Positions 3,870-60,676 of a stretch of DNA of 64,000 nucleotides are shown here, piece by piece (position 1 is the stretch's first letter; the number at the start of each line of letters is the position of its first letter). Below the pieces are notes generated by a model that saw only the letters and a program-made list of their open reading frames with translations, searched no databases and was not told where the DNA came from. This stretch comes from a virus. The DNA lies in IMG/VR virus record IMGVR_UViG_3300021963_000051, positions 47,967-111,966 of that record; one strand, 5' to 3'. Both the position numbers and the translations under genes were made by a program.

Positions 3870-6800
3870 ATGGCAACCAGCGTACAACAATATCCAGGGA
3901 ATCTTAAAGTATCTGTATATAACGGATTCATTGTTATTGATGCTAAAGATCAAATTTCAATAACTTCCCAATTTGGATACATAAGAACAGAAGCAGGACT
4001 CTATATTACCAACGAAGCCACTGGGGGTTATCTTAGAAATATAGCATCTCAAGAAGTCTTAATAAGATCAAATTTAAGTTATGTAGAGGTAGATGCTAAT
4101 GATTATATAAGATTAACATCCAATAGTAATTATATTCAATTAAATGCTGCTCAATACGCTAGAATTTCAGCAGGCGATTATGTAGAGTTAAAGCCTCAAA
4201 GTTATTTAAAATTTGATGTAACTACGTATCATCAAAGTCAAATAGGTGATTATTCTGTCAGTGTAATCGGGGGTTATCAAACTGTTGATGTTGCACAATA
4301 TATTGAACAGTCTGCTGGTAATTATTATAAAATATCAGCATTAGGTGGAAGAATTACATTAGAAGCTAATAGCTTTGTAGAGATTGACGCCCAACAGCAA
4401 GTCACAATTACTTCTCAAGGAAGTTTTATAAATTTAACCGCTGTATCTGTTATTGGCACAGATGCTCAAGAAATTGAATTAGGAGCTAATGATACTCAAG
4501 ATGTTATTCCTAATGCAAAATTTAAAAAGGATCTCTTTGTTAGAGATTCTACAACATATGATATAGGAGCATCTGGGGAGACATGGAGAGGACTCCACAT
4601 TGAAACAATTGACAGTTATGATCAAGGCAATGTTCAAAATCCTTATTTCAGAGTATTCGATCCAAATGATGTTTACGGCGCCGCAATAGGTAATGCTGGT
4701 CAAATAGCCATAGCGAATGCTCAACGAGCATCAGCACCTGTGTATTTTAGAGGTGGTGTAGGTATAGCAAAAGATTTAAATGTTGGCGGATTCATTTATG
4801 GTAGAATTGAAACAGCTAATACCAGTTTAAGTATTAATGTAACTGCTACAAATATTGATCAAGTTTTTTACAATACCTTTGCAGTAAGTACGGGTAATCA
4901 ATTTTTATTCATAGACTCTACAGGATTACAAGGAGGATATACCTATAATCCAAGTCGAGGTCTACTTACTGTTGAACGGGGGAGAGTAGTAGCTACAGAT
5001 CAAAGTGTTAGTACTACAACAGGTGCATTTACTGTAACAGGCGGAGTTGGTATTGGCAAAGATGTTTATATTGGTGGCAATATTTTACCTGGAACTGCTA
5101 ATACTAGCAGTATAGGCCTACAAGATTTAGAATGGGCTACAGGATTTATCAATAATTTATATTCCGAATTTATTGGGAATACCAATACTAATATAATTAT
5201 GCAGCCAGATATCACTGCAAATAAAGGCAGAGTTGATATTTTCGGTGACATTAGAGTACGCGGTAAAGATCCTGTAGGAACTGCTCCAGTTGTAAGGAAT
5301 ACTCTATATGTCACTATGGATGGTAATGACACTAATGATGGTAGAGCAATGGATGCCAGTCGTGCTTGCAGAACAATTAGTGGAGCTGTTAAGAGTCCGT
5401 ATTACCAAGAAGGAACACAAATTCTAGTTAGTGCAGGATTTTATCTTGAAGATAATCCTATAAGGATGAAGCCTTACACTAGTATAAGAGGTAGTGATAT
5501 TAGAACTACCTTTATTGAACCAATCAATAAAACGCAGGATTTATTTCATGTAGAAAGTGGTTGTTACCTAAACTATATGACCTTTTTAAATGGAAGAAGT
5601 GGCTTACTTGAAGGTCCATATGAACAGGGCTTTAATAGAGGAGCGTATTGTACAGCATTTCCTCCATTAGAAGGTGATGACAGAATAGACTTGTTCCATA
5701 GTCCTTATATTCAAAACTGTACAAATCAAAGCGGTCCTTGGCTCAAAGACGGAACAATGTTTATACCGAATTCCACTGTACAAATTCCAAGAGCTGTAGG
5801 AACAGGAACATGGGAAGCAAACACTACAACTATAGTAGTAAAAGCTAATACAGGCACAATTGCCAAAGGCATGAGTATAAACGCAGGTAATCAAAATCCA
5901 GGATTTTTTGATGCTCGTACGTTAATGTTGGCAAATAAGGCATTCATTCAAGAACAGGTAGTTGCTTTTGTAGATCAAACATTTAATAGTGGAAATTTTG
6001 TCTACGATCAAATTAAATGTGCTAGAGACACAGGTTTGATTTTAGAAAGTATTGCCATTGATATGCTTCAAGATAGCACAAGCGAAAGCATTTTTGCCGG
6101 CCTTCAGTACTGGAGACAGAGCGGATATGTAGATGCTATAGGTAGTCAATTTACAGCAACAATAAATTCTATAGGATATCTAGCTACTCTTGCTGTTACT
6201 ACAGCATCTAATGCAGGTGGTGGCGCACAAGGATCTATTGTCAATCAGCGTTTTCAAAATATTTTAACAATTCTTAATACTAGTACAGCAACTTTAGCTA
6301 ATGGTTCATTTAGTGAATGGATAACAAATAGTATTGTAAGTAATGGTACCGCTACAAATAATGTCAATACTGTCTTGGCCTACAATGCTTTATTAGCCGC
6401 TAAAAATAGTTTAAAAGAAGGCGTAATATCTTATATAACTAGTAATTTTCCAACATTGGTATACAACTCATCTACATGTCGAAGAGATGTAGGATTTATA
6501 ATAGACAGTGTAGCATTTGACCTATTACATGGCGGAAACAAACAAAGTATTAAATCTGGAGTTTACTATTTTGGCTATACTTCAACCATTAGTGAAATTA
6601 ATACAGGTTCTAGTAATATTACGAATGAAATTCCACAAACAACTGCTGCTTATAGATTCTTGAAAGGTATCGTTTCAAATGTCGTTCAAGGAATTCCTGT
6701 ACCTACAAAATATCAAAATTCTATCCTACAAACTATCGCAGGATATAACAGCGGTACTATTCATCAGGCTGAAGATTTATCAGATAGGATAGATATTATC

Positions 6801-9800
6801 ACAGGTATAATTAGAAATGGCCCTTCTGATTATGCCGAAACTGGTAAACGTATTCCTATTAGTCTTGAAACAAATACTACGACGCAAGTTTCAAATGCCT
6901 ATAATTTATTACAAGCTAATAAAAATTTTATAGTTGCTGAAACTATTGCTTATATTAATTCAACATCAAATTACTTCGAATATAATAGAGAAAAATGTAG
7001 ACGTGATGTTGGAATTTTAGTAGAAAATATAAGTTATGATGCTACATTTGGTGGTAATGAAAAAGCTGTAGAAAGTGGACTTGCCTATTTCGATGGTGTA
7101 ATAAGCAAAATTTCCGGACAAGAAGTTCAAACTATTTCAGCTATAGATTATCTAAATTCTTTAGCTCAAAAAATAATAAGAAATCAAACCTGTACAAATC
7201 TTTTAGGATTTACTGCAACTCATGTACAAGTAATTAATACAGCATTAACTGGAGGAGCAGTAAGTTCAGATACTATAGATTATCTATTTGATATAGTTAC
7301 AACAATTATAGATAATGGTCCTACCGCAGCACCTACCATTTATAATAGCCCAGGACCGGATAGCGCATTTGTAAGTGCTCAAACTCTTATTCAATCTAAT
7401 AGAGCATTTATACAACAAGACACGATAAACTATGTTAATAATGTTTTATTACCTACTTTATATCCAGGATATTTTTCATACAGTGAAATAAAATGCCGTA
7501 GAGACACTGGATTAATTATTGATTCTATCGCTATTGATTTATTGTATCCAACTGCGGCAAGAAGTCAAAGTACATTTGCCGGATTACAATACTGGAATCA
7601 AGATGCATATGTTGGAGCTATTGCAGATCAATTAAATCCTACTGTAGATGCTATTAAGTACCTTAAAGATCTAGCAAGAAAAATTGTCTTATGTATTACA
7701 CCTAGTGATGATTTAGTTAATAGATATCAAACAGCCATTCCCCAGGTTACAAATTTAGAACCAGGAACAGATAACGAAGTAACTATTTTAAATGCTAGAT
7801 TTGATGAACTTATAGAAATAGTAAACGGAAATAAATCAGGTTGGACAAACAGAATTATTCCCAATGGAAAAACAAATAGTTTATTAAATTACAAAAATGC
7901 TTACAATCTATTAATAGCAAATAGAGCATACTTAGGTGCTGAAGTAAATGCCTATGTCCAGGCAACAAATTTTGGATTTACTTATGATACAGCCAAGTGT
8001 GCTAGAGATGTGGGATACCTCACAGAAGCTGTAGGCTTTGATATGCTTCACGGAGGAAATAGACAAACTGTTCAAAACGGTTTATATTATTACGGATTTA
8101 CTTCAACTACAAACATTTATAATGAAACTACTCAGACTGTTGCTGCCTTCAACACGTTAAGTTATATCATAAGTCAAGTTGTACTTAATACTCCTGTTAA
8201 TCGTAGACAGTTTAAAAAAGTTCAAACATTTTTTACAACTACTGCTACAATAAGCGAAGTTAATTTTATTAATACTACTGTTAATACAATTACAAGCATC
8301 ATTTTAAATGGACCAAGTGTAGCAGCATTACCAGCTGGTGTAGCAATGACAGCCAGTAATTCCGCAAGTGTAATCACAGCCTATGATTTAATTTATGCTA
8401 ATAAAGATTTTATTATCGAAGAAGTAATTAGTTTTATAGATCAAACTTATAATGCAGGTAGATTTAACTATGATGAAGCTAAATGTTTTAGAGATGTTGG
8501 GTTAATTTTAGACGCTGTTACTCAAGATGTAATTTTAGGGGGAAATAGTAAAAGTATTGAAGCAGGATTGGCATATTGGAGTGGAGGTTATAATTCTGTA
8601 GGAGATCAAATTACCACTACAACTATGGCAATTAATCACGCACGAGATATGGCGATCACAGTGGCTAAAAATCAAATATTTACAGCTACTACTGGTACAT
8701 TACTAACGCAAAACATTATTCCATTTTTTCAATATGGTGATGAATACGGTCCACAAGAAGCTATTCGTAGAAACTTTAATATAATTACTACTATTATAGA
8801 AAAAGGTCCTTTATATGCTCCGCCAACTTATGCTGGAGGAGGACTCTTTAGTCTTGTTGGTATTAACGGTGCAGATGTTAAGATTGCTCCTAAAGTTATT
8901 AGTGTTTCTACTATTACTACAGGCACATATAGGATCGGGCTTGATATACCTACTATAGGATTCGGTGTTAATTCTACTCTATACTTTGGAGATACACAGA
9001 TATTTCCTTTAAGAGATAAAGAAGTAGATGAGCAAAGTTTTGAATACGCAGGAAACACTTCAACATGGGCACTTAGAAAAATAGACCCAGTCGGTGGTAT
9101 GGGAGGCAGTTTAGTAGATGGTGGGGTGATAAGTGATAGATCTCCTATTCAATCATTTGTGTATGATGCCTTTACTCAACTTACACAGGGCGGCCGTGGC
9201 GTTCATATCATTAGAGATGGTTATGCTCAGTTAGTTTCGGTCTTTACTATTTTTGCTTCTAAGGGTGTAGAAGTTGAAAGTGGTGGTATAGCCAGTATTG
9301 TTAACAGTAACGCTAACTTCGGAGACATCTGTTTACAGGCTAAGGGCTTTGGCAAACGTAAATTTACAGGGCATATTTACAATCCTTCATTTAAGTCTTA
9401 TCCAGAAAGTCCAAATTTAATAGGAGGGGAATATTTAAATCAATATTATCCTAGCGGATTTTGGCCTAACAATGCGCAGGTTATGGTCTTTTTACCAGAT
9501 TTAGATGATCGTCCGCACATTTCTTTAGTAATGGAGGTTATTCCTCCGGAGACTGTACGAGATTATACAGGAGAACTTGTAGCACAGGTTAATGAACAAG
9601 GCTTTCCGGGATTTTTAAATGCTAGTCCTACTACAAGCACTTTGTCTACAGGAAGTATAACTATCTCTGGAATAGACACAACTAATATCTTTGTGGGTAA
9701 CCGTGTATATGCTAGAGATCAATTTGGAAGAAGCACAAGCTCGAATATAGATGTTAATGGTGACTGGATACCATATGTAGATGACGAGACATTTGTTACT

Positions 9801-10928
9801 GGGTTAGAATATCAAACAGTTACACTGAGTAAGCCATTATTATCGGGTGGCGCTGATCCAGATAATACTGCTTTGAGTATAAATGATAATTATTTTGATT
9901 TGTATTTTTGTGGTAATGCATATTATACAGTATTAAGTAGTGAGGTTGGATCAAATCCGCAATATGCCGGCACAGGAACAACTTTAATACCTGATGGAGA
10001 AAATATTCTATCTGCTATAAGTCTAGGTTTACCTGTTGGTCAAATTAATGAACATATAGCTACACTAAATTACCTTAATACAATCACAAATAGAGTGATA
10101 AGTAACCTTCCAGTTACAAGTTTACAGACAGGAACAAGTACAACAACTCAATATATTAACTTGTTAGTACAAGGTGGGGGGGAAGCTACATCGTTCATAG
10201 ATTTAAGGTTTGATGATTCTATAAACATCATAGGAGCAGCTAATCTTACTGCGGCAGAAGCAGTGGTTAGACCTAGTCTTAGAACTACCTCTGGAGCACC
10301 TGTACAAGGGGCAGGTAGTGCTGTCAGTTTAATAGAACAAAATATAGAATTTTTAGCAGACGAAGTCAGCGCATTTGTACGAAATAATTATTTTTCAACA
10401 AATTTTGTAACATTAAGTCAAGCAGACAAAGATAAAATTTTCTACAAGTGTCAGCGAGATACAAAAATTATTCTACAAAGATTAATATACGACATAGAAA
10501 CTGGAGGCAGGTACAATATGGTAATGGTTGGTCTTAGCTATTGGAGAAGACAGGGTACCTATCATATTGTTAGTTTGGGAGAGGCAGTGACAAGAACTGA
10601 TTTATTCCCAGACGGTGCTACAGTTAATTTCTATCAAAGAAGCTATATGAGTGCCAGTGGTTACGTATTTGAATATGTAGGAGCGGGTATCGATTACGGA
10701 GCACTTCCACAGCGTGGGGTAGCAGATCCCCAACAAGGTAGAGAAGTAGTTCAGCTAAATGCCGGTAAGGTATTCTTTACTTCAACTGATCAAAACGGTG
10801 ACTTTAGAATAGGTCCAGGATTAGTTATTAGTCAAGCAACTGGTGTGCTTAGTGGTAGAACATTTACACGATCATTATTTGCTAATTTAACACCCTTTAT
10901 TTTAGCTATTGAAGCAGGTGGGGGCTAA
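3870..10928 (+). CDS. Giant virion protein (2352 aa): beta-repeat N-terminus, fibre repeats, right-handed beta-helix interrupted by phycobiliprotein-like CxRD globin repeats
   Basis: LYVTMDGNDTNDG...RTISGA beta-helix cap, SPYIQNCT, GYAQLVSVFT; seven C-x-R-D repeats; GGVGIGKD fibre repeats. Confidence 0.75.
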   Translation: MATSVQQYPGNLKVSVYNGFIVIDAKDQISITSQFGYIRTEAGLYITNEATGGYLRNIASQEVLIRSNLSYVEVDANDYIRLTSNSNYIQLNAAQYARISAGDYVELKPQSYLKFDVTTYHQSQIGDYSVSVIGGYQTVDVAQYIEQSAGNYYKISALGGRITLEANSFVEIDAQQQVTITSQGSFINLTAVSVIGTDAQEIELGANDTQDVIPNAKFKKDLFVRDSTTYDIGASGETWRGLHIETIDSYDQGNVQNPYFRVFDPNDVYGAAIGNAGQIAIANAQRASAPVYFRGGVGIAKDLNVGGFIYGRIETANTSLSINVTATNIDQVFYNTFAVSTGNQFLFIDSTGLQGGYTYNPSRGLLTVERGRVVATDQSVSTTTGAFTVTGGVGIGKDVYIGGNILPGTANTSSIGLQDLEWATGFINNLYSEFIGNTNTNIIMQPDITANKGRVDIFGDIRVRGKDPVGTAPVVRNTLYVTMDGNDTNDGRAMDASRACRTISGAVKSPYYQEGTQILVSAGFYLEDNPIRMKPYTSIRGSDIRTTFIEPINKTQDLFHVESGCYLNYMTFLNGRSGLLEGPYEQGFNRGAYCTAFPPLEGDDRIDLFHSPYIQNCTNQSGPWLKDGTMFIPNSTVQIPRAVGTGTWEANTTTIVVKANTGTIAKGMSINAGNQNPGFFDARTLMLANKAFIQEQVVAFVDQTFNSGNFVYDQIKCARDTGLILESIAIDMLQDSTSESIFAGLQYWRQSGYVDAIGSQFTATINSIGYLATLAVTTASNAGGGAQGSIVNQRFQNILTILNTSTATLANGSFSEWITNSIVSNGTATNNVNTVLAYNALLAAKNSLKEGVISYITSNFPTLVYNSSTCRRDVGFIIDSVAFDLLHGGNKQSIKSGVYYFGYTSTISEINTGSSNITNEIPQTTAAYRFLKGIVSNVVQGIPVPTKYQNSILQTIAGYNSGTIHQAEDLSDRIDIITGIIRNGPSDYAETGKRIPISLETNTTTQVSNAYNLLQANKNFIVAETIAYINSTSNYFEYNREKCRRDVGILVENISYDATFGGNEKAVESGLAYFDGVISKISGQEVQTISAIDYLNSLAQKIIRNQTCTNLLGFTATHVQVINTALTGGAVSSDTIDYLFDIVTTIIDNGPTAAPTIYNSPGPDSAFVSAQTLIQSNRAFIQQDTINYVNNVLLPTLYPGYFSYSEIKCRRDTGLIIDSIAIDLLYPTAARSQSTFAGLQYWNQDAYVGAIADQLNPTVDAIKYLKDLARKIVLCITPSDDLVNRYQTAIPQVTNLEPGTDNEVTILNARFDELIEIVNGNKSGWTNRIIPNGKTNSLLNYKNAYNLLIANRAYLGAEVNAYVQATNFGFTYDTAKCARDVGYLTEAVGFDMLHGGNRQTVQNGLYYYGFTSTTNIYNETTQTVAAFNTLSYIISQVVLNTPVNRRQFKKVQTFFTTTATISEVNFINTTVNTITSIILNGPSVAALPAGVAMTASNSASVITAYDLIYANKDFIIEEVISFIDQTYNAGRFNYDEAKCFRDVGLILDAVTQDVILGGNSKSIEAGLAYWSGGYNSVGDQITTTTMAINHARDMAITVAKNQIFTATTGTLLTQNIIPFFQYGDEYGPQEAIRRNFNIITTIIEKGPLYAPPTYAGGGLFSLVGINGADVKIAPKVISVSTITTGTYRIGLDIPTIGFGVNSTLYFGDTQIFPLRDKEVDEQSFEYAGNTSTWALRKIDPVGGMGGSLVDGGVISDRSPIQSFVYDAFTQLTQGGRGVHIIRDGYAQLVSVFTIFASKGVEVESGGIASIVNSNANFGDICLQAKGFGKRKFTGHIYNPSFKSYPESPNLIGGEYLNQYYPSGFWPNNAQVMVFLPDLDDRPHISLVMEVIPPETVRDYTGELVAQVNEQGFPGFLNASPTTSTLSTGSITISGIDTTNIFVGNRVYARDQFGRSTSSNIDVNGDWIPYVDDETFVTGLEYQTVTLSKPLLSGGADPDNTALSINDNYFDLYFCGNAYYTVLSSEVGSNPQYAGTGTTLIPDGENILSAISLGLPVGQINEHIATLNYLNTITNRVISNLPVTSLQTGTSTTTQYINLLVQGGGEATSFIDLRFDDSINIIGAANLTAAEAVVRPSLRTTSGAPVQGAGSAVSLIEQNIEFLADEVSAFVRNNYFSTNFVTLSQADKDKIFYKCQRDTKIILQRLIYDIETGGRYNMVMVGLSYWRRQGTYHIVSLGEAVTRTDLFPDGATVNFYQRSYMSASGYVFEYVGAGIDYGALPQRGVADPQQGREVVQLNAGKVFFTSTDQNGDFRIGPGLVISQATGVLSGRTFTRSLFANLTPFILAIEAGGG
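5910..8815 (+). repeat. Six tandem ~153-173 aa protein repeats (CxRD globin-like) arranged ABC-ABC
   Basis: Cys codons at 6018, 6477, 6996, 7494, 7998, 8484; repeats 1/4, 2/5 and 3/6 are pairwise most similar. Confidence 0.85.
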
Positions 10929-10939
10929 AAGGAAAAATT

Positions 10940-11356
10940 ATGGCATTAATTCCATTAAATAAATTTGTTACGAAAACAGTCATTTTAAATACATCTAGTT
11001 TTTATTATAATTATTCTGGAGTGAGTACAACAACTGTATATACCGCTCCAATTGGTGTAACTAGTATTGTATTGATGGCTCAAGTATCTAATATCAGTAC
11101 AGGTACACAAGCAGTGAATTTTATTCATCACAGAAATAGACCAATTTTAGCAGACGCTCAAGGTAACGGTGCTCAACCTGCCAATGTAGATAGCTTTCTT
11201 GTTAAGAATTTTGAAATTCCTAGCGGTGATGCCGGTACTGTTTTGTCAGGTAAACTCGTAATTGAAAGTTTAGATAGTTTAAGAGCATTTGTCAGTTCTA
11301 ACAACTCCAACACTGTACAACTTGTTCTAAGCGTTTTAGAAACAGCAAATAATTAA
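10940..11356 (+). CDS. Small virion structural/fibre adaptor protein
   Basis: 138 aa, TTVYTAPIGVTSIVLMAQVSN beta-sandwich pattern; directly follows the giant virion gene. Confidence 0.55.
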   Translation: MALIPLNKFVTKTVILNTSSFYYNYSGVSTTTVYTAPIGVTSIVLMAQVSNISTGTQAVNFIHHRNRPILADAQGNGAQPANVDSFLVKNFEIPSGDAGTVLSGKLVIESLDSLRAFVSSNNSNTVQLVLSVLETANN

Positions 11357-11366
11357 AGAGAAATTT

Positions 11367-13055
11367 ATGCCAAAACTTTTAAGTGGATCAGTTCTGAGAA
11401 CAGGAGGTAGCGGAGACTTTATTGATCTAGCTAATTCTCAACCTCAACTGCCGGCTACTGAAACAACTGCTACAGGGTTTACTGTAGCAACTGATGGACT
11501 TCTAAGAACAACGTATAGATCAGCGTTAGGTTTCGTAGAATTTAGAACTGCTACAATTTGGAGTGGGTTGCCTGAGGGTACCATTAGAATAAATGCTACT
11601 GGTACAGCATTCTTATCAACAACCACAAGCACCGGAAATCTTGTAGTCCAAGGGGGTATAGGCGTAGGCGGTAATATGAGAATCGCCCGAGATATTACTG
11701 TAAACGGACTAACAATAGGACAGGGAATAGAAGGAAAAAATAATATTATTTTTAGAGGTACAGCTTCGGCTCAAGCAACTGCCTTTGAAGATGGACAAGA
11801 GTCAATAGCAATAGGCTATGATACATTAACTGGATTAATAACAAGTTATAAAAATATTGCCATAGGAAGATATGCTTTAAGTTCAGGCTCAAATATTTCT
11901 AATACCATAGCTATCGGTGACAGTGCTCTACGCCTTATGGGTACAAATAATTATCCATTTTTAGCTACTGTTACTAATGTTACTAGAGTAAATTCAAGTA
12001 CAATTACTGCTGCTACAAATGCTAGTCCTATAGTAGTAACTGCTGCTAGCCATGGTTTAACTACAGGTAGTCAAATATTAATTTCTAATGCTGTAGGTAT
12101 GACCACAGCTACCGGTAGTGTCAGCGTTTTAAACAATACCAAGTATTGGGTTAATGTATTAGATCCTAATTCTTTAGCCTTATATACAAATAAGTCTTTA
12201 ACAATAGCTTCTAACGGGACTTCAACAACTGTTTTTGGTGTTTTATATACTCTTACCAGTTATGTAGGAAGTGGAACTATAATTAGTCCCACTCTTGTTA
12301 CCTACACAGGCACAACAATTAATACCGGAAGTGGAGTGTACATTGACGGTATAAATGGTACAGTACAATTAAATCAACGTAATTTTTATGTTGATTATAT
12401 AAATTCTAACACAGTAAGTCTTTTTCAAAACAGTATTCTTCTTACACCAATAGATGGTAGCGGTTACACTGCCTATACGTCTAGTGGTACAATTTATCGT
12501 TATATTACCAATGATGATAATATTGCCATAGGTAACGATGCTGCTAAAATTTTAGTTAATGGTAATGACAATTTCTTTTTTGGAAATAATGTTGCTGTAA
12601 ACTTGACCACTGGTTCTAATAATACCATAATAGGTCATAATGTAGCCAATAACTTAACTAATGTAAACGGTACTATCGCACTAGGCGGTGATAATCTTGT
12701 TGATAATAGAGATAATCAAGTTAATATAGGTAGTGTATTTTATTATGATGGTAGAGGAAATACAGATTTAAACACAGACGTCCGTGCTGGACTAGGAACA
12801 GATAGCACTGGAACCAACTCAGGAGCAATGGTAATACTAGGTGGGCTAGGTGTAGCCGGTAAAGTTTTTAGTCAAGGTAGTGGGGTAGCCGGAGAAGATT
12901 ATGAATTATATACCCCAACGATAACTATAACAACAGGTACAGCACCTGCAAATCCTAGACTAGGTGATGTTTGGATCAACACTGGAATATTTGCCTATCT
13001 TCAATATATACAGGATGGTACAAGCACCATTTGGTTACAAATTGTTCAACTATAA
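11367..13055 (+). CDS. Tail fibre-like protein with YadA-head-like NIAIG repeats
   Basis: SIAIG/NIAIG/TIAIG/NTIIG repeats, ITAATNASPIVVTAASHGL domain, GGIGVGG repeat. Confidence 0.7.
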   Translation: MPKLLSGSVLRTGGSGDFIDLANSQPQLPATETTATGFTVATDGLLRTTYRSALGFVEFRTATIWSGLPEGTIRINATGTAFLSTTTSTGNLVVQGGIGVGGNMRIARDITVNGLTIGQGIEGKNNIIFRGTASAQATAFEDGQESIAIGYDTLTGLITSYKNIAIGRYALSSGSNISNTIAIGDSALRLMGTNNYPFLATVTNVTRVNSSTITAATNASPIVVTAASHGLTTGSQILISNAVGMTTATGSVSVLNNTKYWVNVLDPNSLALYTNKSLTIASNGTSTTVFGVLYTLTSYVGSGTIISPTLVTYTGTTINTGSGVYIDGINGTVQLNQRNFYVDYINSNTVSLFQNSILLTPIDGSGYTAYTSSGTIYRYITNDDNIAIGNDAAKILVNGNDNFFFGNNVAVNLTTGSNNTIIGHNVANNLTNVNGTIALGGDNLVDNRDNQVNIGSVFYYDGRGNTDLNTDVRAGLGTDSTGTNSGAMVILGGLGVAGKVFSQGSGVAGEDYELYTPTITITTGTAPANPRLGDVWINTGIFAYLQYIQDGTSTIWLQIVQL

Positions 13056-13066
13056 TGAGATTATAA

Positions 13067-14104
13067 ATGGCACTATTTAATTTTCCCCCTAATCCTACTA
13101 TAGGACAGACATATCAAGTAGGAAATAGAACTTATGTATGGACTGGGTCAGCTTGGGTAATAGGCCCTAGTCCGACAAATTTTACTTCTGGTACTGGTGT
13201 AACATTGATTTTAACATCTACCACAAATGCTGTGGGTTTAAACACAGGTGGTACATTAACAGTTCTAGGTGGAGCTGCTATTTCAGGAGATTTATATCTC
13301 GGAGGTAGTTTAATAGGTATTAGTACAGGAACTGGTGGCGGAGCAGGAACTGTTAATGCAGGTACAGGAACGTTTACAAGAGTTTACATCAATGGAGGAT
13401 TTCAATCCACAGGAACAAATAGCGGCGCATTACAAGTATTAGGAGGTGTGGGCATAAGTGGAAACCTTTGGATAGGCGGAATTTTATACTCTGCTGGTGC
13501 TCCGGTTTTAACAACTGCTAGCTTTAATGAAACTCTATTCGACGGTGTTGATATAGATATTACAGACATCGGGGGTGGAGTTTTGCAATTAAATAATATC
13601 TCAACTCTTCAATCTGTAACAGGCAGAGGTAATGCTACCAATAATGATGTAAGAATAACTGCTTCAACAATATCTACAGGTACAAACTCAGGTGCTTTAG
13701 TTGTCACAGGAGGTGTAGGAGTAGGTGGACGTATCAATTCTGAAAGTCTTAAGATCGCTGATGCGGTTTATGATTCAACTGTCCAACTGGTAAATAGTAC
13801 TGTCTTGACAGTAATAGATGAATTTAGTTTTAACCAATTTAGATCTGCCAAGTATATGGTACAGGTCAGCGAAGGAAATTCTAGTACTCATAGATGTCAA
13901 ATTACAGAATTATTAGCACTGGTCTCAAACACAGGTACAGTTATTTTAACAGAATATGCTACGATTAATACGGATGTAGATTTAGGTAATTTTGATGCAT
14001 TGGTAACAGACACAGGAAGCGACATAGTTGTAAGATTATATTTTTTAGCTACAGATAGTATTCCAAAAACAGTAAAAGTATTGAGGACTGCTATCGCCAA
14101 ATAA
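13067..14104 (+). CDS. Tail fibre-like protein
   Basis: FPPNPTIGQTY...WTGSAW N-terminus, GALxVxGGVGI repeats, C-terminal RSAKY domain. Confidence 0.7.
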   Translation: MALFNFPPNPTIGQTYQVGNRTYVWTGSAWVIGPSPTNFTSGTGVTLILTSTTNAVGLNTGGTLTVLGGAAISGDLYLGGSLIGISTGTGGGAGTVNAGTGTFTRVYINGGFQSTGTNSGALQVLGGVGISGNLWIGGILYSAGAPVLTTASFNETLFDGVDIDITDIGGGVLQLNNISTLQSVTGRGNATNNDVRITASTISTGTNSGALVVTGGVGVGGRINSESLKIADAVYDSTVQLVNSTVLTVIDEFSFNQFRSAKYMVQVSEGNSSTHRCQITELLALVSNTGTVILTEYATINTDVDLGNFDALVTDTGSDIVVRLYFLATDSIPKTVKVLRTAIAK

Positions 14105-14116
14105 AGGAAGTGGAGC

Positions 14117-16681
14117 ATGCCGATATTTTCGCAAAGTAGGGATTTCCTTACTAAAAATGGTATCATAACCGAAGGGACAGGTGAAGTAACTAGTTCAACA
14201 GGTAATACCAACGCAATTCAGTCAGCGGGCGGTATTGCCGCAGCTAAAAATATCATAGTAGGCACCACGGCTACAATTTATGGTCCGTTAATAGTTAACA
14301 ACTCAGCAACGCTAGGAAATACATTTGTAACATCTATCACAGCCACTAGTACTTCTGGATTCGTTGATTTATATGTAAGAGATATTACAGCTAGTGGAAT
14401 TATTTTCGGAACCATTACAGGCAATATTAATACAGCTACTAATCTAGCGAATGGTTTAGCTGGACAACTTGTTTATCAAACCAACCCAGGTCAAACGGCC
14501 TTTGTTACTCGCGGTGCCACAGGCACTATTCTTACCAGTAACTTTGCCGGTGCTCCCAGTTATAATGATTACCTAACATTGGCAAATGTTACAAATGCCA
14601 GTTCCACACTTACAGGAGCTTTACAGGTAAGAGGTGGGGCAGGGATTGGCCTTAATTTATATGTCGGTGGTGACTTATCTGTAAGCGGTGGTGACATAAT
14701 TACAGATGCTACAACATTTAATCTTTTAAATGCCAATGCTACTACGATCAACTTCGGTGGTGCTGCTACCTCTTTAACAATTGGTAATACAACAGGTGAA
14801 ACTACTGTTCGAAATAAATTTACAGTCAGTAATATCACCAATGCTGCTTCTACAGTAACAGCAGCCCTGGTCGTTTCTGGTGGAGTTGGTATAGGTAGAG
14901 ATCTTGTAGTAGGCGGAACCATATATGGAACTATAAGCGGTATTATTACCACTGCCACATTTGCTCAAACTGCTCAAACTGCTACAAATATAGCAGGCGG
15001 TTCTGTAGGCAGCATACCTATCCAAACAGCAGCTGGGTTGACAGCACATATACCTTTAGGTGCTGTGGGATATGTTCTAACTGCCGCAGCCAGTACAGCT
15101 AGTTGGCAAAGTTTAGCAGGACTAAGTGCAGGCAGAGCCACCACATCAACTCATTTAGATCTAGGATCAGCTGGGCAAGTACCATTTCAAACTGGTGTGG
15201 GACTCACAGGCTTCACTGGGCCTGGTTTAGATGGAGAAATATTAGTTAGCAGAGGTGCTGTGGCTTCCGGTCCAGTATTTCAAAACACTCTTACACTAAA
15301 CAGCACTATCGCAGCAAGTTCTACACAGACCGGTGCTTTACAGGTTAGAGGTGGTGTTGGCATAGCTCAAAATCTTTATGTAGGAGCTAATGCTAATATT
15401 GGCGGTACAGTTATTGTTAATAGTACAGCGTCTAGTACAGGCACAGGTAATAGTAATGCCCTGTATGTAGTAGGCGGTGCCTATATTGATAAAACATTAG
15501 TCGTAAAGGAGCAAGCAAGATTTGAAGGGGCTGTAGTTTTTGCCGGTACAGCCACATATGCCTATTCTACTGTTACAGTCTTTACAGATAATTTATTAAG
15601 TGTACACGCACCGTCAGGAACAACACCTCCTGATCATACTTGGACACTAGACGATGGTAAAGACATTGGCCTATTGTTTCATTACTACAAAAGTGCCACA
15701 GATAAAGATGCCTTTTTAGGATTTAAGAACAGTTCCGGATTTTTAGAATGGTATGATAATGGTACAGAAAGTGGTGGTGTATTTACAGGTACTAGTTATG
15801 GTACTTTTAGAACAGGTGGAATACGACTTGTAGGCGGCAATGCCAATACAGAAAATACTACTTCTGGAGATCTACAGGTCCTGGGTGGAGTGGGTATTGG
15901 TGGTAAAATTTATGTAGGTAGTTCAGGAACATTCGCCGGTGATATATTACCCGCTTCTAATGGCACAGTAAACCTAGGTAGTCCAACAAGGCGATTTGGT
16001 ACCTTATATGTTACAAGTTCTACATTAGATGTTGGTGGGTTAGTAATCGCCAGTGACGGAACTTATGTAACAATACCAGCTGTGAAAATTACAAATTCTA
16101 CAGCGTCAGCTTCAACTTTAACAGGTGCATTTGTTGTAGTAGGTGGTGTTGGTATCGGTGGAGCTACAAACATAGGTGGTGTAGTTAAGGTTTTAGATAC
16201 AACTAATGCCACAAGTACAACCACAGGTGCTTTACAAGTTTCTGGCGGGGCTTCGATATCCAACAACCTATATGTGGCTGGTAATAATTATGTATCAGGT
16301 GCTTCTAGTCTAGGGACAACTGCTACAGGTGTAGTGGTTAGAGGATTTGTTAGCAATAATAGTGAATACGCTACATACACAAGTAATCCAATCACAACAA
16401 CTGTACAGACAGTATTAGACACATTTAGTACCAGTTCGTTTAGAACCTGTAAGTATGTAATTCAAATGGTTGACGGCACTAGTACACATATACAAGAACT
16501 TCTAATGTTCCACAATGGTAGTCAAGTATTCAAGACAGAATATGGACTTGTTGTAAATAATTCTGAATTAGGTACTTTTGATGCAGAAGTAACTACAGGC
16601 ACAGTTCGACTGTTATTTACTGCCAATCCAACTCCTAGTAATCTTGTAGTTAAACTAATTAGATTAGCGATTACCGGATAA
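14117..16681 (+). CDS. Long tail fibre-like protein
   Basis: T/G-rich; many TGALQVxGGxGIG repeats; N-terminal DFLTKNG; C-terminal RTCKY domain. Confidence 0.75.
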   Translation: MPIFSQSRDFLTKNGIITEGTGEVTSSTGNTNAIQSAGGIAAAKNIIVGTTATIYGPLIVNNSATLGNTFVTSITATSTSGFVDLYVRDITASGIIFGTITGNINTATNLANGLAGQLVYQTNPGQTAFVTRGATGTILTSNFAGAPSYNDYLTLANVTNASSTLTGALQVRGGAGIGLNLYVGGDLSVSGGDIITDATTFNLLNANATTINFGGAATSLTIGNTTGETTVRNKFTVSNITNAASTVTAALVVSGGVGIGRDLVVGGTIYGTISGIITTATFAQTAQTATNIAGGSVGSIPIQTAAGLTAHIPLGAVGYVLTAAASTASWQSLAGLSAGRATTSTHLDLGSAGQVPFQTGVGLTGFTGPGLDGEILVSRGAVASGPVFQNTLTLNSTIAASSTQTGALQVRGGVGIAQNLYVGANANIGGTVIVNSTASSTGTGNSNALYVVGGAYIDKTLVVKEQARFEGAVVFAGTATYAYSTVTVFTDNLLSVHAPSGTTPPDHTWTLDDGKDIGLLFHYYKSATDKDAFLGFKNSSGFLEWYDNGTESGGVFTGTSYGTFRTGGIRLVGGNANTENTTSGDLQVLGGVGIGGKIYVGSSGTFAGDILPASNGTVNLGSPTRRFGTLYVTSSTLDVGGLVIASDGTYVTIPAVKITNSTASASTLTGAFVVVGGVGIGGATNIGGVVKVLDTTNATSTTTGALQVSGGASISNNLYVAGNNYVSGASSLGTTATGVVVRGFVSNNSEYATYTSNPITTTVQTVLDTFSTSSFRTCKYVIQMVDGTSTHIQELLMFHNGSQVFKTEYGLVVNNSELGTFDAEVTTGTVRLLFTANPTPSNLVVKLIRLAITG

Positions 16682-16746
16682 GTGGGAGAATAGTAAACGG
16701 ATCAATGATCTAGTAATCAAAAACCAATTAGTGGAAAGGGAAACTA

Positions 16747-19710
16747 ATGGCAGTCGATAAAGATTTTAAAGTTAAAAATGGCCTTGTGGTAGTTACGACT
16801 GCTAGTTTGTTATCAGGAGTTGACTCGGCATCTACTAGTACAGGCGCTCTTCAGGTAGTAGGTGGTGCAGGAATAGGAAAAAATCTTTATGTAGGTTCTG
16901 CAGTATATATTGCCGGAAGCACTGCTCTTACCGCTGCTAATTTTACCACATTCGTTAATCAGACCTATATTTTTGCCGGTACTGACACCGCTGTAAATAC
17001 CAGTTCGGGTAATGTGACGATTTGGAGCACTTCAACATTACAAAGTATTACCAATAGAGGTGCTACAACTAATAATGCTATAAGCATCACCAACGCTACA
17101 AGTTCAACAACAACAGCAACAGGAGCCTTGATTATTACAGGTGGTCTTGGTGTTGGTAGAACTATAAATGCTTTGGAACACCATACTCCTACAGGACTAG
17201 CAAATAGACCAAGCTCAAATTATGATATAACCGGAAATTTAGGTCATTTTCAAAATGCTGTCAATATAGGTAGGGTAGGAGGAGGATCAATATCTTTTGG
17301 TGATGGCAATACACCTTCTATAATTCAAGGCTTTCCTGGTCTAGGGTTTATAAGAGCATATATTAACAATGATTCTACTAATAATCAACTATGGTATGGA
17401 AACAGTACAGGATTAGTTGTAGGTAATGGAACAAGTCCCGCGGCAAAATTAGATGTTGTTGGATCAGTAAGAATCAGCGGCATAACCACTATAACCAATA
17501 CAACAGCAGCATCGTCCACTCAGACTGGTGCTCTACAGGTCAGCGGTGGAGTTGGTATTGGTGGTAATACCTATGTAGGTGGCAATTTGAATGTAAGTGG
17601 TGAGATAGTCGCTACAAAATTAACAATAGAATTGACCACTGTTACTACTACATTAGTAACAACTGATGACATTATTCAAACCGCTAATACAACTAATTCT
17701 ACTGTGACAAATTTAGGTGCCCTTGTAGTAGCGGGCGGTGCGGGTATAGGAAAAAGACTAAGCGTAGGTGAAATTTTAAAGGTTTTTGATACCACTTCAG
17801 CTACCAGTAGTCTAACCGGTGCTCTTCAGATAGTAGGCGGTGCTGGTATTCAAGGCAGTTTATTCGTAGGCGGCAATCTCAATGTTGGTGGTACAATAAC
17901 CGGTAGCATATCGGGATCATCTAATACTGCTACTAATCTTGCTGGTGGCGTGTCTGGACAACTATTATATCAAGTAAATGTAGGACAAACTGGATTTGTT
18001 GCCACAGGTACTGATGGTACAGTTCTTGTTTCTAAAGGGTCCAGCCAACCAGTATATCAAAATACTCTTACTCTTGCCAGTTCATTGGCATCAAGTTCGA
18101 CTCAATCAGGAGCACTACAGGTCATAGGTGGAGTTGGTATAGGTGGAGACCTATTTGTATCAAGAGTGAGAATCACAGCGAATACCACAGCTTCATCTAC
18201 TAACAGCGGCGATCTTGTTGTAACTGGTGGAGTGGGAATCGGTCGTGATACATTTATAGGCGGGGCACTTACTGTAGGAGGAACAAGCGGAGGTATAATT
18301 ACCGGACTATCTGGACTTACAACTACCAACGCTGTAATTTCTGGAACAGCTACAGCGGTTTCGACTCAAAGCGGAGCACTTCAGGTAGTAGGTGGAGTAG
18401 GAATCGGGCGGGATTTATATGTTGGCGGAAATATAACCATTGCGGGCGCTATTCAAGGAACTTTGATCGCCGATCAAATCAAGACTCAAAGCGTTTCAGC
18501 CGCTGCTACTTACTATCCGGCTTTCGTTGACAGCAACAATGCCACAGTATCGACTGAAACAGTCTATACCACTAGCACTTTCAATGTAAACCCAGCAAGC
18601 GCATTGGTCACTGTGGGTAATCTTTCAGCTACAAATATAGCTACAATTTTGTCTACTCAAGCAGCCAGCTCAACAGCAACTGGTGCTTTACAGGTTAGGG
18701 GTGGAGCTGGTATCGGCGGTGAGCTTTATATAGGTAATAATTTATACCTTAATAAATCAATAGGGAATTCTATTGTTTTAATAAATTCTAACTCTGGTGG
18801 GAATCTAGGTAGTGAAGTTGTTTTTAAAAATGCTACTACTTTTAGTTCCTTAGGAGATCAAGGAATACTCGGTAGTTTAATTATTGCAGATTCAACAGAT
18901 ACCAGCAGAGGATCTATAAGATTTTCAAAAAATGGCAACGGTATTGATATTGGATTATGGTCAAGCGGATTTGCTACAACATCTACAGCAAATTTATTAA
19001 TAAGACCTACTCAATCTCAGTTTACAACAGAATTATTAATAACAAGTACTTCAAGTTCTGTATCTACCCAAACCGGAGCTCTTCAGGTCGTTGGCGGTGT
19101 AGGGATTGGCGGTAAACTATTTGCTAGAGGATTGGTAAATTCAACTGGTACGCAAATTGTATATTACAATAGTTCTACTGGTGAGTTGAGCTTCGGTGCT
19201 AATTTTGCTTCCGGTGGTGGAGGAATAACCAGTCCCTACGCTGGTATTTTTACTATAACAAATACTTCAAATGCTACTTCTATTGCCTCAGGAGCACTAC
19301 AAGTAGCAGGCGGTGTAGCTATTGGCCAAGATATATATCACAATGGAAGTGCTTACCTTTCACAAAACGTCTTCGGCGACGTGGTAAGATTCGGTAGCGG
19401 AATTAATGCAATTCTCTTTAATAATTCGAACCCGCCAAGTATTAGGCCTGGCGGCGCAGTGCCGTTTAATTTATATACAAGTAATCAAAACGGCGGACTA
19501 ACAGTATTATCAACAGGTGAAGTATTATTAAATTCCGCATCTGCGGCAAGTTCTACCTCTACAGGTGCGCTAAGAGTAAATGGGGGCGCAGGTATACACG
19601 GCAACATTTATGCTTCTGGTAGAATTTATTCAGGTGGGTTTGAAGTATCAACCGCCACCGGTGCCGGTGTATCAGAAGCTTTGGTTATTGCCTACTCTGT
19701 AGTGTTATAA
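16747..19710 (+). CDS. Long tail fibre-like protein
   Basis: N-terminal DKDFKVKNG; about ten GALQVxGGxGIG repeats. Confidence 0.75.
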   Translation: MAVDKDFKVKNGLVVVTTASLLSGVDSASTSTGALQVVGGAGIGKNLYVGSAVYIAGSTALTAANFTTFVNQTYIFAGTDTAVNTSSGNVTIWSTSTLQSITNRGATTNNAISITNATSSTTTATGALIITGGLGVGRTINALEHHTPTGLANRPSSNYDITGNLGHFQNAVNIGRVGGGSISFGDGNTPSIIQGFPGLGFIRAYINNDSTNNQLWYGNSTGLVVGNGTSPAAKLDVVGSVRISGITTITNTTAASSTQTGALQVSGGVGIGGNTYVGGNLNVSGEIVATKLTIELTTVTTTLVTTDDIIQTANTTNSTVTNLGALVVAGGAGIGKRLSVGEILKVFDTTSATSSLTGALQIVGGAGIQGSLFVGGNLNVGGTITGSISGSSNTATNLAGGVSGQLLYQVNVGQTGFVATGTDGTVLVSKGSSQPVYQNTLTLASSLASSSTQSGALQVIGGVGIGGDLFVSRVRITANTTASSTNSGDLVVTGGVGIGRDTFIGGALTVGGTSGGIITGLSGLTTTNAVISGTATAVSTQSGALQVVGGVGIGRDLYVGGNITIAGAIQGTLIADQIKTQSVSAAATYYPAFVDSNNATVSTETVYTTSTFNVNPASALVTVGNLSATNIATILSTQAASSTATGALQVRGGAGIGGELYIGNNLYLNKSIGNSIVLINSNSGGNLGSEVVFKNATTFSSLGDQGILGSLIIADSTDTSRGSIRFSKNGNGIDIGLWSSGFATTSTANLLIRPTQSQFTTELLITSTSSSVSTQTGALQVVGGVGIGGKLFARGLVNSTGTQIVYYNSSTGELSFGANFASGGGGITSPYAGIFTITNTSNATSIASGALQVAGGVAIGQDIYHNGSAYLSQNVFGDVVRFGSGINAILFNNSNPPSIRPGGAVPFNLYTSNQNGGLTVLSTGEVLLNSASAASSTSTGALRVNGGAGIHGNIYASGRIYSGGFEVSTATGAGVSEALVIAYSVVL

Positions 19711-19735
19711 ATAGATAATAACGGAATGTTCAAAT

Positions 19736-22700
19736 ATGGCAAAGAAACAGATTATTGATTATACATTTTTACCTGCATTTGCACCGAGTGCTAATGCCTA
19801 TCCTAACGCCTACAATAGATTAGTCAATAATAAAAATTATATAACCAAAATGGCCAGTGCCTTTATTGCCAATCAAGTTGCTAACAATACTGCCCCATTT
19901 GTAAATTTTACCTATAACGCAGAAAAGTGTGAACGAGATGTAGGTTATGTATTAGATGCCATAATAAATGATTTGAGATATGGTGGGGATGCAGATACCG
20001 TATTGGTAGGAAGTTTTTACTGGTTTGAAGGTATTCCTCAGGTCGACGGTGATAGGCAACCAGAAGTTGTTACGCAAAATTATATAAGAGATTTAATCAA
20101 CAATTATATTTTTACAGGGACAGCAGCAAGTCCGGCTTACCAAACAGTTGTACCGCAGAGCACAACTGGTTCGAATGCCGAGGCTGGTGCTAGTGGCAGA
20201 ATAACAACTCTGTATGCTACTCTCACAAACATTATTTCAACAGGTGTAGTACCAGCAGCTACAGCCAATCCTAATTACAAAGGCACTGTTGAAATATTAG
20301 GAAATATACCTATAAAAGAACTGCTGCTGATTATTAATGTAACAAGAAACATTATTATCTATAACTTTGCAGACACCACTAAAGGTGGTCAATCCATCTA
20401 TAACTTTAACACAAAACGCACAAGATATAGATTAGATTTTGATACTTCATCAATGATAGCCACTGACAAGCTGATCATTTATGTAGAGCGAGACAACGAA
20501 ACAATTAAACCACATCCTACCTATCAAGATCCTGTTGAAAAGATGCGTGTATCAACACCGCAGGCATTGATGGATACCGACTTTGAGTATAGTCTACAAG
20601 GTACAAAGTGGGAAACTCTTACATTAATGAGCAATGTGCCCAGTGTATATAGTAAAGCCAATGAGCCTTCTTTTACAGCGCAACAGATTAACTCAATACT
20701 TCCTGTTCCTGGTGGTGGTCCTGCTGCGGCAGTAAGTTATATAACATATGCTCCAAACGGGACCACAGGCCTTACTTTGTTACGAAACGGTGCTTACTAC
20801 GCTGATGATTATAACGAACCATTAAATTTTCCTTGGACAGTACAATTCTTAGGTGATAATTATAGTTTAGCCTATTTCGGCAGTAATGGATATTTTACAT
20901 TTGGATCAGGTTCTAATCAATATAGCGGCTATAATCAATTTGCACCACCAAGGGGTATTGGTTACGCCCCTGCGGATAGAACACTTTGGCAATTTTGGTA
21001 CGGACTTGTAAACTCCAATTTATTCATTGTTAAAATCAGTGGAGGTAATTGTTGTAGCGGCCCGCAAGTGTATGATACCGAAATGCACTTTAACAGACTA
21101 ACACCTAGTATAATTGATATTCATATGGTATATAAGAATACAGGTGATAGTGTAAGTCCTTGGGTTAAGACTGATAGTGCTTATCTTTTTCAAGGTGGCT
21201 TGGCTACTGGACAAGCCTGGCGTGTGGTCACGGGTGCAGGAACTTCTAGAGATGTAACATTAAATGTTAATACCACTCCCCCGACACCATTCTATGTAGG
21301 ACAACCTATAATTTTTAAAGAGACCCAAAATTTATATCTTGACGGATCATATCTAGTCAAAACAGTAGTGAGCAATACACAGGTTACTATAGGTACAGGT
21401 AAGGCTTTGACAGCAGGATTTGATTATAAATCAAACTATACCACTGTGTATACGGGCGGATTTTTTACAGGTGCTGAGCTACCTCTTAATTTTGTTCAAA
21501 CCATTTCAGGTACGCTTAATGCAGACATTTTCTTTAACAGTCCTCACGCACTATATCCTGGACAAACAATCTATGTAGTAGATAGTACTCAAAACAACGC
21601 AGATTGGGTAGGATCTTTCCAAATTTTTCAAGTTGTAAGCTCTACACAGGTAAGGTTTATCACCGCGAGATTAACTAATTGGCCATCAACAGCCACAGTA
21701 AGCGGTGCCAATACTAGAGTGTATGTTAGACCTACAGGGGTTGCCAACCATAGGTTTGCCGATGGTGGAGTATCTATTAGTCCAGGTGGCTCTGCGCCTA
21801 ATACACAGATAATTAGACAGACTAGAAAATATTTTAGATATCAATCTGGTAAAGGTATTCAATTTTCCACTGGCGTATTATTTTTACCAACCTATGATAT
21901 TAATTCAGTAAGTGTGACGACCAATGTGTACAGTGTTTCTAATCCCTTTTATGATCTAAATATTTTATGCGATCAAGAGCATGGCTTCGCACAGCCTGAT
22001 AGTTTTAGACAAGGTGCTTACATTTTATTATCCGGATTTACTGTAAGCACTGGCCCAAACTTCTATAATGGACTATATTATGTAAGTGGTATTGCCAGTG
22101 AACGACAATTTACAGTTAAAATAAATCCTGCAATCACAGATTTGAATCCCGGTGGTATTGCTAAGGTCAGTGTTGTCAGCTGGTATGATTGTACTATTCG
22201 TGATGGATTGTTTGATGATCAAAATGGAATTTTCTTTGAGCACGACGGACAACAATTAGCCGTCGTCAAAAGAGCAAGTACTCAGCAGCTAACTGGCACA
22301 GTAAATGTAACAAATAACAGTTCTACAATTACAGGAAACGGTACTAAATTTCTAACTCAACTGAGTGTAGGCAATTACATAGTAATAAAAGGAATGAGTT
22401 ATTTGATTACCAGCAAACCTTCAAATACATCTGCTACGATTGCCCCTGATTTTAGAGGAATAACTGAGTCAAATTTAAGAATATTAAAAACCATAGATGA
22501 TAGAACACTTCAATCTAACTTCAATTTAGATCGTATGGATGGAACAGGTCCTAGTGGTTATGTTTTTGATAAAAATAAAATGCAGATGGTGTTTATAGAT
22601 TATAGTTGGTACGGAGCCGGTAAGATTCGTTGGGGTATGAGGGGACTAGATGGTAGTATCCTATACTGTCACGAAGCTCCTCAAAATAATAGAAATACAG

Positions 22701-47966: not shown

Positions 47967-47968
47967 TA

Positions 47969-57942: not shown

Positions 57943-58962
57943 TTAGAAACGATGACGAATACCAACACCTGATACACGAGTATCTGCGAAAGCTGTATTA
58001 GTTCTATTAACACCATCATTGGTATAATTAGTGTCACGTACAGCAGCATAAACATCAGTACGTTTACTTAGGCTGTGGCTTAGACCGACTGCCCAACTTG
58101 CGGTTTCTGCTGACTTATTACCTATAAAGGCGTGATCATGTTTAGCATAACTTACCATAGCTGTGTTACCTTTACCTAAAGGCATAGCAGCACCAAGGCT
58201 CCAACCTTTATCCTCTTTGGTTACCGCATCGCTGTGTTCAACTTTATCCCATTGAGCATAGACTTTGGCAACCTTAAGATCATAACTACCACCAAGAATT
58301 AGAGCAGTCATGCTTGGCTTACCAGCACCTTGTTCTACATCTTGCCATGTGGCTGTAAGACCAATTGGGCCACTAAAATACATAGCGCCCACACTCTTAC
58401 CTGCCTGTTTGGTTCCAGTGGCATCATCTACAACGCCTGCTGAATATACACCAGTAAGAGATAATCCACCTGCTTTGGTTTTTACTAGAACACTGTTGTT
58501 CCAACCAGAATCAACACCGCCTGCGGCTAGGTTGAAATTGGTAACACCAAAACGTTGTGTGAATGTTGGTGAAAATACTGAACTATCACCGAAACTGTTA
58601 AATGCCACAGTAGAAATAAAGTATGGAGTGGTTACACGACCGACTTGTACTTCGCCTACTTTACTGCCCAATGATACATAGGCATTGCGAGCATAGAAAG
58701 CATCACCGTTAAACCGTCCTGTTGAGGCTGTGTCTGGACGTAGAAATGTTTCTAGAACCACGCTGGCCTGATATGCGCCAACTTGCTCAACACTCTTGAT
58801 ACCGATGTGGCTGGTACTCATACCACCTGCTGATACTTGATTAGTTGAGGTCTTTCCTGATGTATGACCGAAGTAAGCATCTGCCAAACCGTAAAGACTG
58901 GTTTGAGCAGCAGCAGTGGTTGTAAGACCGGCCAATAAAACAGCCAATAAAAGTTTTTTCAT
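57943..58962 (-). CDS. Gram-negative general porin (betaproteobacterial type)
   Basis: Signal peptide, SLYGLAD start, RNAYVSL, LSKRTDVYA, C-terminal GIRHRF. Confidence 0.9.
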   Translation of the reverse strand: MKKLLLAVLLAGLTTTAAAQTSLYGLADAYFGHTSGKTSTNQVSAGGMSTSHIGIKSVEQVGAYQASVVLETFLRPDTASTGRFNGDAFYARNAYVSLGSKVGEVQVGRVTTPYFISTVAFNSFGDSSVFSPTFTQRFGVTNFNLAAGGVDSGWNNSVLVKTKAGGLSLTGVYSAGVVDDATGTKQAGKSVGAMYFSGPIGLTATWQDVEQGAGKPSMTALILGGSYDLKVAKVYAQWDKVEHSDAVTKEDKGWSLGAAMPLGKGNTAMVSYAKHDHAFIGNKSAETASWAVGLSHSLSKRTDVYAAVRDTNYTNDGVNRTNTAFADTRVSGVGIRHRF

Positions 58963-60640: not shown

Positions 60641-60656
60641 ATGAATATTTATGAAA

Positions 60657-60676
60657 GCAGGGTCCTAAGACCCTGC
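60657..60676 (-). terminator. Terminator-like hairpin after tmRNA
   Basis: GCAGGGTC-TTAG-GACCCTGC followed by TTT on minus strand. Confidence 0.65.

Follow-up and report, generated by a model that had tools for sequence, protein, structure and literature searches.

Light-harvesting phycobiliproteins (PF00502: the alpha and beta subunits of phycocyanin, phycoerythrin and allophycocyanin, and the ApcE domain) are free subunits of about 165 residues with a globin-type fold, in which an X-Y hairpin pairs alpha with beta. C-X-R-D is their covalent-attachment motif. It is also carried by BBAG-1 and BBAG-3, phycobiliprotein paralogues outside phycobilisomes that attach bilins without lyases and that are single-domain cytoplasmic proteins, clustered beside a reductase in bacterial genomes (Rockwell, Martin and Lagarias 2023, PMC10151467). 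Two questions about phages are open in the literature. One is why functional genes for bilin synthesis occur in phages, even in some whose hosts lack phycobilisomes (PMC3037559, PMC2984593, PMC11480375); the purpose of pebS and pcyA in Prochlorococcus phages has been called a mystery (PMC3037559), and that of hemO and pcyX in phages of non-cyanobacterial hosts is described as unknown (PMC11480375). The other concerns cyanophages that need light to adsorb, with no dependence on host photosynthesis, a behaviour for which light-sensitive tail fibres were proposed as one possible cause (PMC6628666). Here we describe a stretch of DNA of 64,000 nucleotides (nt) from an uncultured aquatic jumbo phage (the window; positions 47,967 to 111,966 of the IMG/VR record IMGVR_UViG_3300021963_000051) encoding a giant protein of 2352 amino acids (aa) with an array of repeats. 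Hidden Markov model (HMM) matches, profile comparison and predicted fold leave us in very little doubt that these repeats are globin domains of the phycobiliprotein type, that their attachment triad is intact and that a virion fibre protein displays them.

The PF00502 HMM matches the whole protein at 32.1 bits, against a Pfam cut-off of 22.2 bits. Taken alone, the sixth repeat (R6) scores 22.7 bits and the third (R3) 18.9 bits, and the remaining copies fall below the reporting level. We built a profile from 92 diverse domains of the window and related viral contigs. All 22 of its matches among PDB sequences are phycobiliproteins (best E 5e-4), and in its alignment C-x-R-D(-x-G) falls onto Cys84-Arg86-Asp87 of phycocyanin alpha. 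With PF00502 above its cut-off and every PDB match in one family, the likeness to phycobiliproteins at the sequence level exceeds chance. AlphaFold with only the seven in-protein copies as alignment gave an unusable model, with a predicted local distance difference test score (pLDDT) of 47, and the 92-domain alignment remedied this. The resulting AlphaFold2 model of R6 has six helices, with the Cys near the start of the long helix (pLDDT 90.5, predicted template modelling score 0.87). Among the Foldseek matches listed against PDB (ranks 1–48), all are phycobiliprotein or fluorescent protein entries, at probability 1.0 and template modelling (TM) scores mostly of 0.57–0.68. VIA-align, which is independent of Foldseek, was run against 48,161 chains; its best eight are phycobiliproteins or the ApcE bilin domain (Z 11.3–15.3, root-mean-square deviation 2.0–3.4 Å over 116–144 residues), followed by other globins (heme sensors) at Z of at most 11. 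A search of the ESM Atlas gave weak leads only, the best (score 0.86) to an RsbR-like cluster. The full copies have the phycobiliprotein fold and carry the Cys-x-Arg-Asp triad where phycobiliproteins attach (Cys) and hold (Arg, Asp) their bilin. An earlier note, made from the DNA letters alone, had claimed phycobiliprotein-like globin domains, with C-x-R-D in the position of the bilin-attachment motif, and had proposed modelling a single repeat. PF00502, the profile, the model, Foldseek and VIA-align agree on the first claim, the alignment to Cys84, Arg86 and Asp87 bears out the second, and the modelled repeat has a globin-type fold with phycobiliproteins first among its structural matches.

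The phage domain resembles its best structural matches, the phycobiliproteins, in the order of its landmarks: C-x-R-D-x-G at the start of the long helix, then a G-G turn, then a G-L-x-aromatic stretch. Unlike phycobiliproteins, it occurs as 6 to 37 tandem copies in giant virion proteins, has a long loop between the last two helices in the model, keeps two family-specific invariants (D65 and Y81, in profile numbering), is not accompanied by linker proteins or lyases (CpeT and CpeS types searched), and belongs to a phage whose host is apparently non-photosynthetic. BBAG-1 and BBAG-3 have C-X-R-D as the phage domains do, a likeness drawn from their description; unlike them, the phage domains are arrayed in structural proteins. 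Globin-coupled sensor and RsbR-type sensor globins are likewise helical globin modules within larger proteins (Z 9.6–11), but they rank below all phycobiliprotein matches, bind heme through a histidine or nothing, and are without C-x-R-D. Giant fibre proteins of T4-like cyanophages (S-PM2 p091, T4-GC 830; the 4458-aa and 3682-aa proteins of P-HM2) contain the same domain family, and BFVD models of cyanophage 'tail protein' and 'structural protein' entries share the fold of the phage domain, with TM scores of up to 0.83. T4-like cyanophages have genomes of 170–250 kb and bilin-making cyanobacteria as hosts, whereas the window's phage falls within a clade of jumbo myoviruses of ~320–370 kb with a beta-type transfer-messenger RNA (tmRNA) and no psbA in its relatives.

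The motif C-x-R-D stands at Cys717, 870, 1043, 1209, 1377 and 1539, with spacings of 153, 173, 166, 168 and 162 aa, and the six full units together span aa 667–1654, nt 5868–8831 (Table 1). A profile built from the copies matches each of the six units (E 1e-53 to 1e-67, hmmsearch). The earlier note had given six repeats spaced 153–173 aa with C-x-R-D at these six Cys, which is exact, and the strings it quoted (KCARDVGYLTEAVGFDMLHGG, AYNALLAAKNSLKEGVISYITSNFP and TVDAIKYLKD) are all found in the translation. Its count holds for full units, but it missed a truncated seventh copy (Cys2194), a half-copy at aa 2057–2130 and a full copy in a neighbouring 1291-aa protein. The array that it placed at 5910–8815 is real, although it starts about 40 nt earlier and stops about 16 nt later. 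Protein identity among the six copies is 24–41% and DNA identity is nearly nil; by this measure the repeats are old and each is maintained individually. There is a three-domain super-repeat, in which R1 and R4 (41%), R2 and R5 (40%) and R3 and R6 (34%) are closer than other pairs (24–32%), and the period-3 signal is faint across homologues (36.3% identity at lag 3 versus about 35% otherwise). A recent tandem duplication or an assembly artefact was rejected in view of the copy identities together with the presence of the same phage DNA in sequencing runs of several studies, labelled marine, pond and freshwater.

Table 1. Features of the window (nt positions; C-x-R-D Cys residues are given with the nt at which their codons start).
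Feature	Position	Strand	Evidence
Giant virion (tail-fibre/baseplate-class) protein, 2352 aa	3870–10928	+	Open reading frame (ORF) list and translation
N-terminal DUF2345 (VgrG-type spike)-like beta-helical stretch, aa 50–95	4017–4154	+	PF10106, 30.0 bits, just below the 30.7 cut-off
Phycobiliprotein-like domain R1, aa 667–819, Cys717 at nt 6018	5868–6326	+	Motif and profile
Domain R2, aa 820–992, Cys870 at nt 6477	6327–6845	+	Motif and profile
Domain R3, aa 993–1158, Cys1043 at nt 6996	6846–7343	+	Motif and profile; alone 18.9 bits to PF00502
Domain R4, aa 1159–1326, Cys1209 at nt 7494	7344–7847	+	Motif and profile
Domain R5, aa 1327–1488, Cys1377 at nt 7998	7848–8333	+	Motif and profile
Domain R6, aa 1489–1654, Cys1539 at nt 8484, copy modelled	8334–8831	+	Alone 22.7 bits to PF00502; AlphaFold pLDDT 90.5
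C-terminal half-copy, aa 2057–2130	10038–10259	+	Profile positions 93–166 at E 1.5e-5
Truncated seventh copy, N-terminal half with C-Q-R-D, Cys2194 at nt 10449	10299–10574	+	Motif and profile
Conserved C-terminal module common to many giant fibre proteins	10575–10925	+	C-termini of phrog_17885 and phrog_3442; near-identical tails in many homologues
Further full copy, Cys65, N-terminus of neighbouring 1291-aa virion structural protein (ORF 19736–23611)	19778–20275	+	hmmsearch E 4e-25; motif
Gram-negative porin gene	57943–58959	-	PF13609, E 6.6e-37
Permuted tmRNA	60652–61056	-	Best as beta-proteobacterial family RF01850, 100.9 bits versus gathering score 84; also RF04321

Clustered at 50% identity, the domain family forms 1412 groups; the proteins that contain it reach 6382 aa, and a single one can have as many as 37 matched stretches. 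None of the homologues has a functional name, and many have a precomputed PF00502 match. Across 2906 domains from 263 homologues the Cys is kept in 98%, the Arg in 98% and the Asp in 100%, and D65 and Y81 in 99–100%, while copies within one array of this homologue set are on average about 35% identical. When short homologues standing alone were sought, nearly all matches were gene fragments on 1-kb contigs or C-terminal pieces, with no free single-domain family and no true phycobiliprotein among them.

PHROGs homology (tail fiber, short tail fiber and virion structural protein families, E 1e-18 to 4e-76), together with a place in the structural module between the major head protein (1536–2711) and the tail sheath and tube genes, assigns the 2352-aa protein to the phage tail-fibre/virion structural class. 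Its S-PM2 homologue is annotated as a tail fibre protein, and the 1291-aa neighbour is a phrog_5838 virion structural protein (E 5e-214). The region is of myovirus type, with structural and replication genes: the major head protein, two sheath-like proteins, a tube protein, a large terminase, SSB, a UvsX-like recombinase and helicases. The window is the final 64 kb of a linear 111,966-bp record, whose CheckV completeness of 30% implies a whole genome of ~320–370 kb. Neither a megablast of the giant-protein gene against cultured phages nor a scan of a species-genome collection with the giant protein returned a match, and no RNA run is among the listed sequencing runs that match the phage DNA.

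Genes for a supply of bilin are found in the relatives of this phage. The window's major capsid protein shares 89–91% identity with those of two relatives of 322–327 kb, G002 and G001, whose gene order is the same; G002, at 322 kb and with terminal repeats, is rated 100% complete and a further relative, G054, 92%. A ferredoxin-dependent bilin reductase is encoded in G002, G054, G001, G049 and G055. These are five of the ten clade records of at least 185 kb, among them the two rated at least 92% complete, and each of the five has domain arrays too. The domain is also present in 5 of 28 PcyX-bearing viral fragments. These co-occurrences lie mostly within one clade and are not independent events. 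The G002 reductase is PcyX (E 1.7e-46 to PDB 5OWG), and a heme oxygenase adjoins the reductase in G002 and G001; the two near-complete relatives both have such a hemO–pcyX pair. Unlike the BBAG genes, which cluster with a reductase, domain and reductase genes lie ~160 kb apart in the five relatives; in G002 this distance separates the hemO–pcyX cassette from the fibre gene, farther than the window's record extends. No 5-aminolevulinate synthase (TIGR01821) was found in five relatives, so the clade, as far as gene content tells, has the two-gene cassette and not the three-gene one. The earlier note had seen no heme oxygenase, reductase or lyase in the window and had proposed a search of the rest of the genome. 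Neither of the first two is present in the record, but this worry is largely resolved, the record being a fragment of about 30% and hemO and pcyX being found in relatives; for CpeT- and CpeS-type lyases the search of the record and four relatives remained negative.

The domain also occurs in cultured phages: a tblastn search matched 141 of their records, every one a cyanophage, and public annotations call the proteins only tail fibre or structural. In S-PM2, the five C-x-R-D copies of p091 match the profile at E 1e-10 to 1e-23. Whether adsorption takes place in the dark has been described for five phages and can be compared with their domain content (Table 2).

Table 2. Domain, bilin reductase and adsorption in five cultured cyanophages (adsorption from PMC6628666).
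Phage	Domain matches	Bilin reductase	Dark adsorption
S-PM2	9, in p091 (five C-x-R-D copies) and a 3792-aa protein	No	No, light-dependent
P-HM1	4	Yes	No, light-dependent
P-HM2	4	Yes	No, light-dependent
P-SSM2	None	Yes	Yes
P-SSP7	None	No	Yes

We lean, by a small measure, towards the explanation that the repeats are phycobiliprotein/BBAG-type globin domains in a fibre and carry a covalent bilin made by phage hemO–pcyX. During infection, heme oxygenase and PcyX, as seen in the relatives, would convert host heme to phycoerythrobilin. A thioether bond would next link it to the domains with no lyase involved, by analogy with BBAG-1 and BBAG-3, and the fibres released from the cell would each be a string of covalent biliproteins. 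The weakest step is the role of the pigment on the particle, which would most likely be light perception or light-gated adsorption, with photoprotection as the alternative. That the fibres are covalent biliprotein arrays acting as the virion's own photoreceptor, with a phage- or host-made bilin gating adsorption by light, is an extension that we regard as doubtful.

Several observations weigh against this explanation. The sequence match to phycobiliproteins is modest (E 5e-4) and lies for the most part in the helices as far as the G-G turn. In the Pfam comparison the X-Y hairpin at the N-terminus is unmatched, the match beginning at profile position 32 with about 13 residues before it in each repeat, and the domain for this reason looks like the globin core only; the R6 model has two helices ahead of the Cys helix. 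The window's own 112-kb record (about 30% complete) contains no heme oxygenase or bilin reductase, the other five of the ten relatives of at least 185 kb showed no reductase (all five are incomplete), and CpeT- and CpeS-type lyases (PF06206, PF09367) have no match in the record and four relatives, one of them complete, E/F-type lyases not having been searched. P-SSM2, with a bilin reductase and no domain, shows that bilin genes in a phage need not go with the domain; S-PM2 has domains and no reductase, and would depend on host bilin. Presence of the domain and light-only adsorption agree in five of five phages, only five in all, two of them near-identical and one a podovirus, and this concordance is a lead, not a test. 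If a particle is assumed to carry roughly 100 bilins, a suspension of 1e12 particles per ml would have an absorbance as low as about 0.02. We know of no report of coloured cyanophage preparations. The photoreceptor step in particular is weakened by the characterised BBAGs, which are photoinert and weakly fluorescent (PMC10151467).

The main rival is that the domain is a chromophore-free structural module, a globin of phycobiliprotein ancestry used as a rigid spacer that sets fibre length, its Cys, Arg and Asp being kept for fold stability or inter-domain contacts. We consider this possible, though not probable. Copy number ranges widely across homologues (4–37 matched stretches), as expected of a length-setting spacer, and half-copies are tolerated. 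The missing lyases and the bilin genes of P-SSM2 without a domain fit it as well, and the invariant D65 and Y81, which in phycocyanin correspond to variable positions or to none that was mapped, could belong to a core specific to the fold. Packing alone, however, hardly explains why a lone Cys persists, always in the exact triad, in 98% of 2906 copies that otherwise share about 35% identity, and phages of apparently non-photosynthetic hosts keep hemO and pcyX without another known acceptor (PMC11480375).

Two further explanations concern the pocket and the Cys. We think it unlikely that the pocket binds another ligand (heme, non-covalent biliverdin or a host surface molecule) and that the array is an adhesin or scavenger. 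Next after phycobiliproteins in structural likeness come the heme-binding domains of globin-coupled sensors (Z about 11), biliverdin is bound by BBAG-2 globins (PMC10151467), and fibre proteins usually bind host surfaces; yet no proximal histidine is among the conserved positions of the 2906 domains, the triad is specific to covalent bilin attachment and is lacking in the biliverdin-specific BBAG-2 (PMC10151467), and the relatives' reductase goes beyond biliverdin. Heme or iron scavenging, which none of the evidence favours, was rejected as the leading idea in view of the missing conserved histidine and the specificity of the triad. Less probable still is that fibre chains are cross-linked through the conserved Cys, by disulfides or other covalent bonds, toughening the extracellular particle, with the likeness to a bilin site a relic. 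Each domain has one conserved Cys, the 2352-aa protein has just 15 Cys of which 7 are in the motif, and virions meet oxidising water. Cross-linking gives no reason, however, for the Arg and Asp two and three positions further along to be just as invariant; no partner Cys is conserved, and a trimeric fibre would have one unpaired Cys per level.

Full-text searches of the literature found no paper describing phycobiliprotein-like domains in phage structural proteins. If the domains do accept a bilin, a fibre-borne acceptor would offer a concrete answer both to the question of the bilin genes and to that of light-dependent adsorption, testable in the cultured phages S-PM2 and P-HM1/2, and the virion would be the first pigment-bearing phage particle. 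A photoreceptor role would explain the hemO/pcyX and pebS/pcyA genes of aquatic phages together with the light-dependent adsorption of S-PM2 and P-HM1/2, and would extend light sensing to phages of non-photosynthetic bacteria. A large virus-borne branch would also join the phycobiliprotein/BBAG family, whose origin is unresolved (PMC10151467).

The host is probably a heterotrophic Gram-negative bacterium and not a cyanobacterium, given the beta-type tmRNA and the Gram-negative porin; the tmRNA, whose tag peptide is ANDEVYALAA, hints at a beta-proteobacterial host. The earlier note had called the host markers non-cyanobacterial, in line with these two genes and with the absence of psbA from the relatives, and such a host fits the literature on PcyX phages (PMC11480375). 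The porin has no close relative in 185,579 species genomes. The porin gene, which may have been acquired from a host, sits where the G+C content rises to 41–45%, versus 32–40% elsewhere. Also encoded in this higher-G+C end of the record are a glutamine-amidotransferase/BPL_N-like protein (59996–60637, minus strand) and a family 2/92 glycosyltransferase (63064–63876, minus strand).

At the ends of the giant protein, the N-terminus resembles a VgrG-type DUF2345 beta-helix, so the protein may attach at the baseplate or spike and not as a classical long fibre. The truncated seventh half-domain runs directly into the C-terminal module, as seen in homologous gene fragments. This module is very strongly conserved among giant fibre proteins and could be a tip or anchoring domain; on short contigs it is frequently annotated as a small gene of its own. 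A 4347-aa ORF upstream of the window (record positions 8628–21671, minus strand) has no phycobiliprotein-like domain by the repeat profile. In G002, hemO–pcyX lies beside genes for ClpS, Hsp20, a ClpX-like ATPase and a 629-aa collagen-repeat protein (G002:C1:24000-42000, positions 8227–14546), which looks like a proteostasis cluster adjoining the pigment genes.

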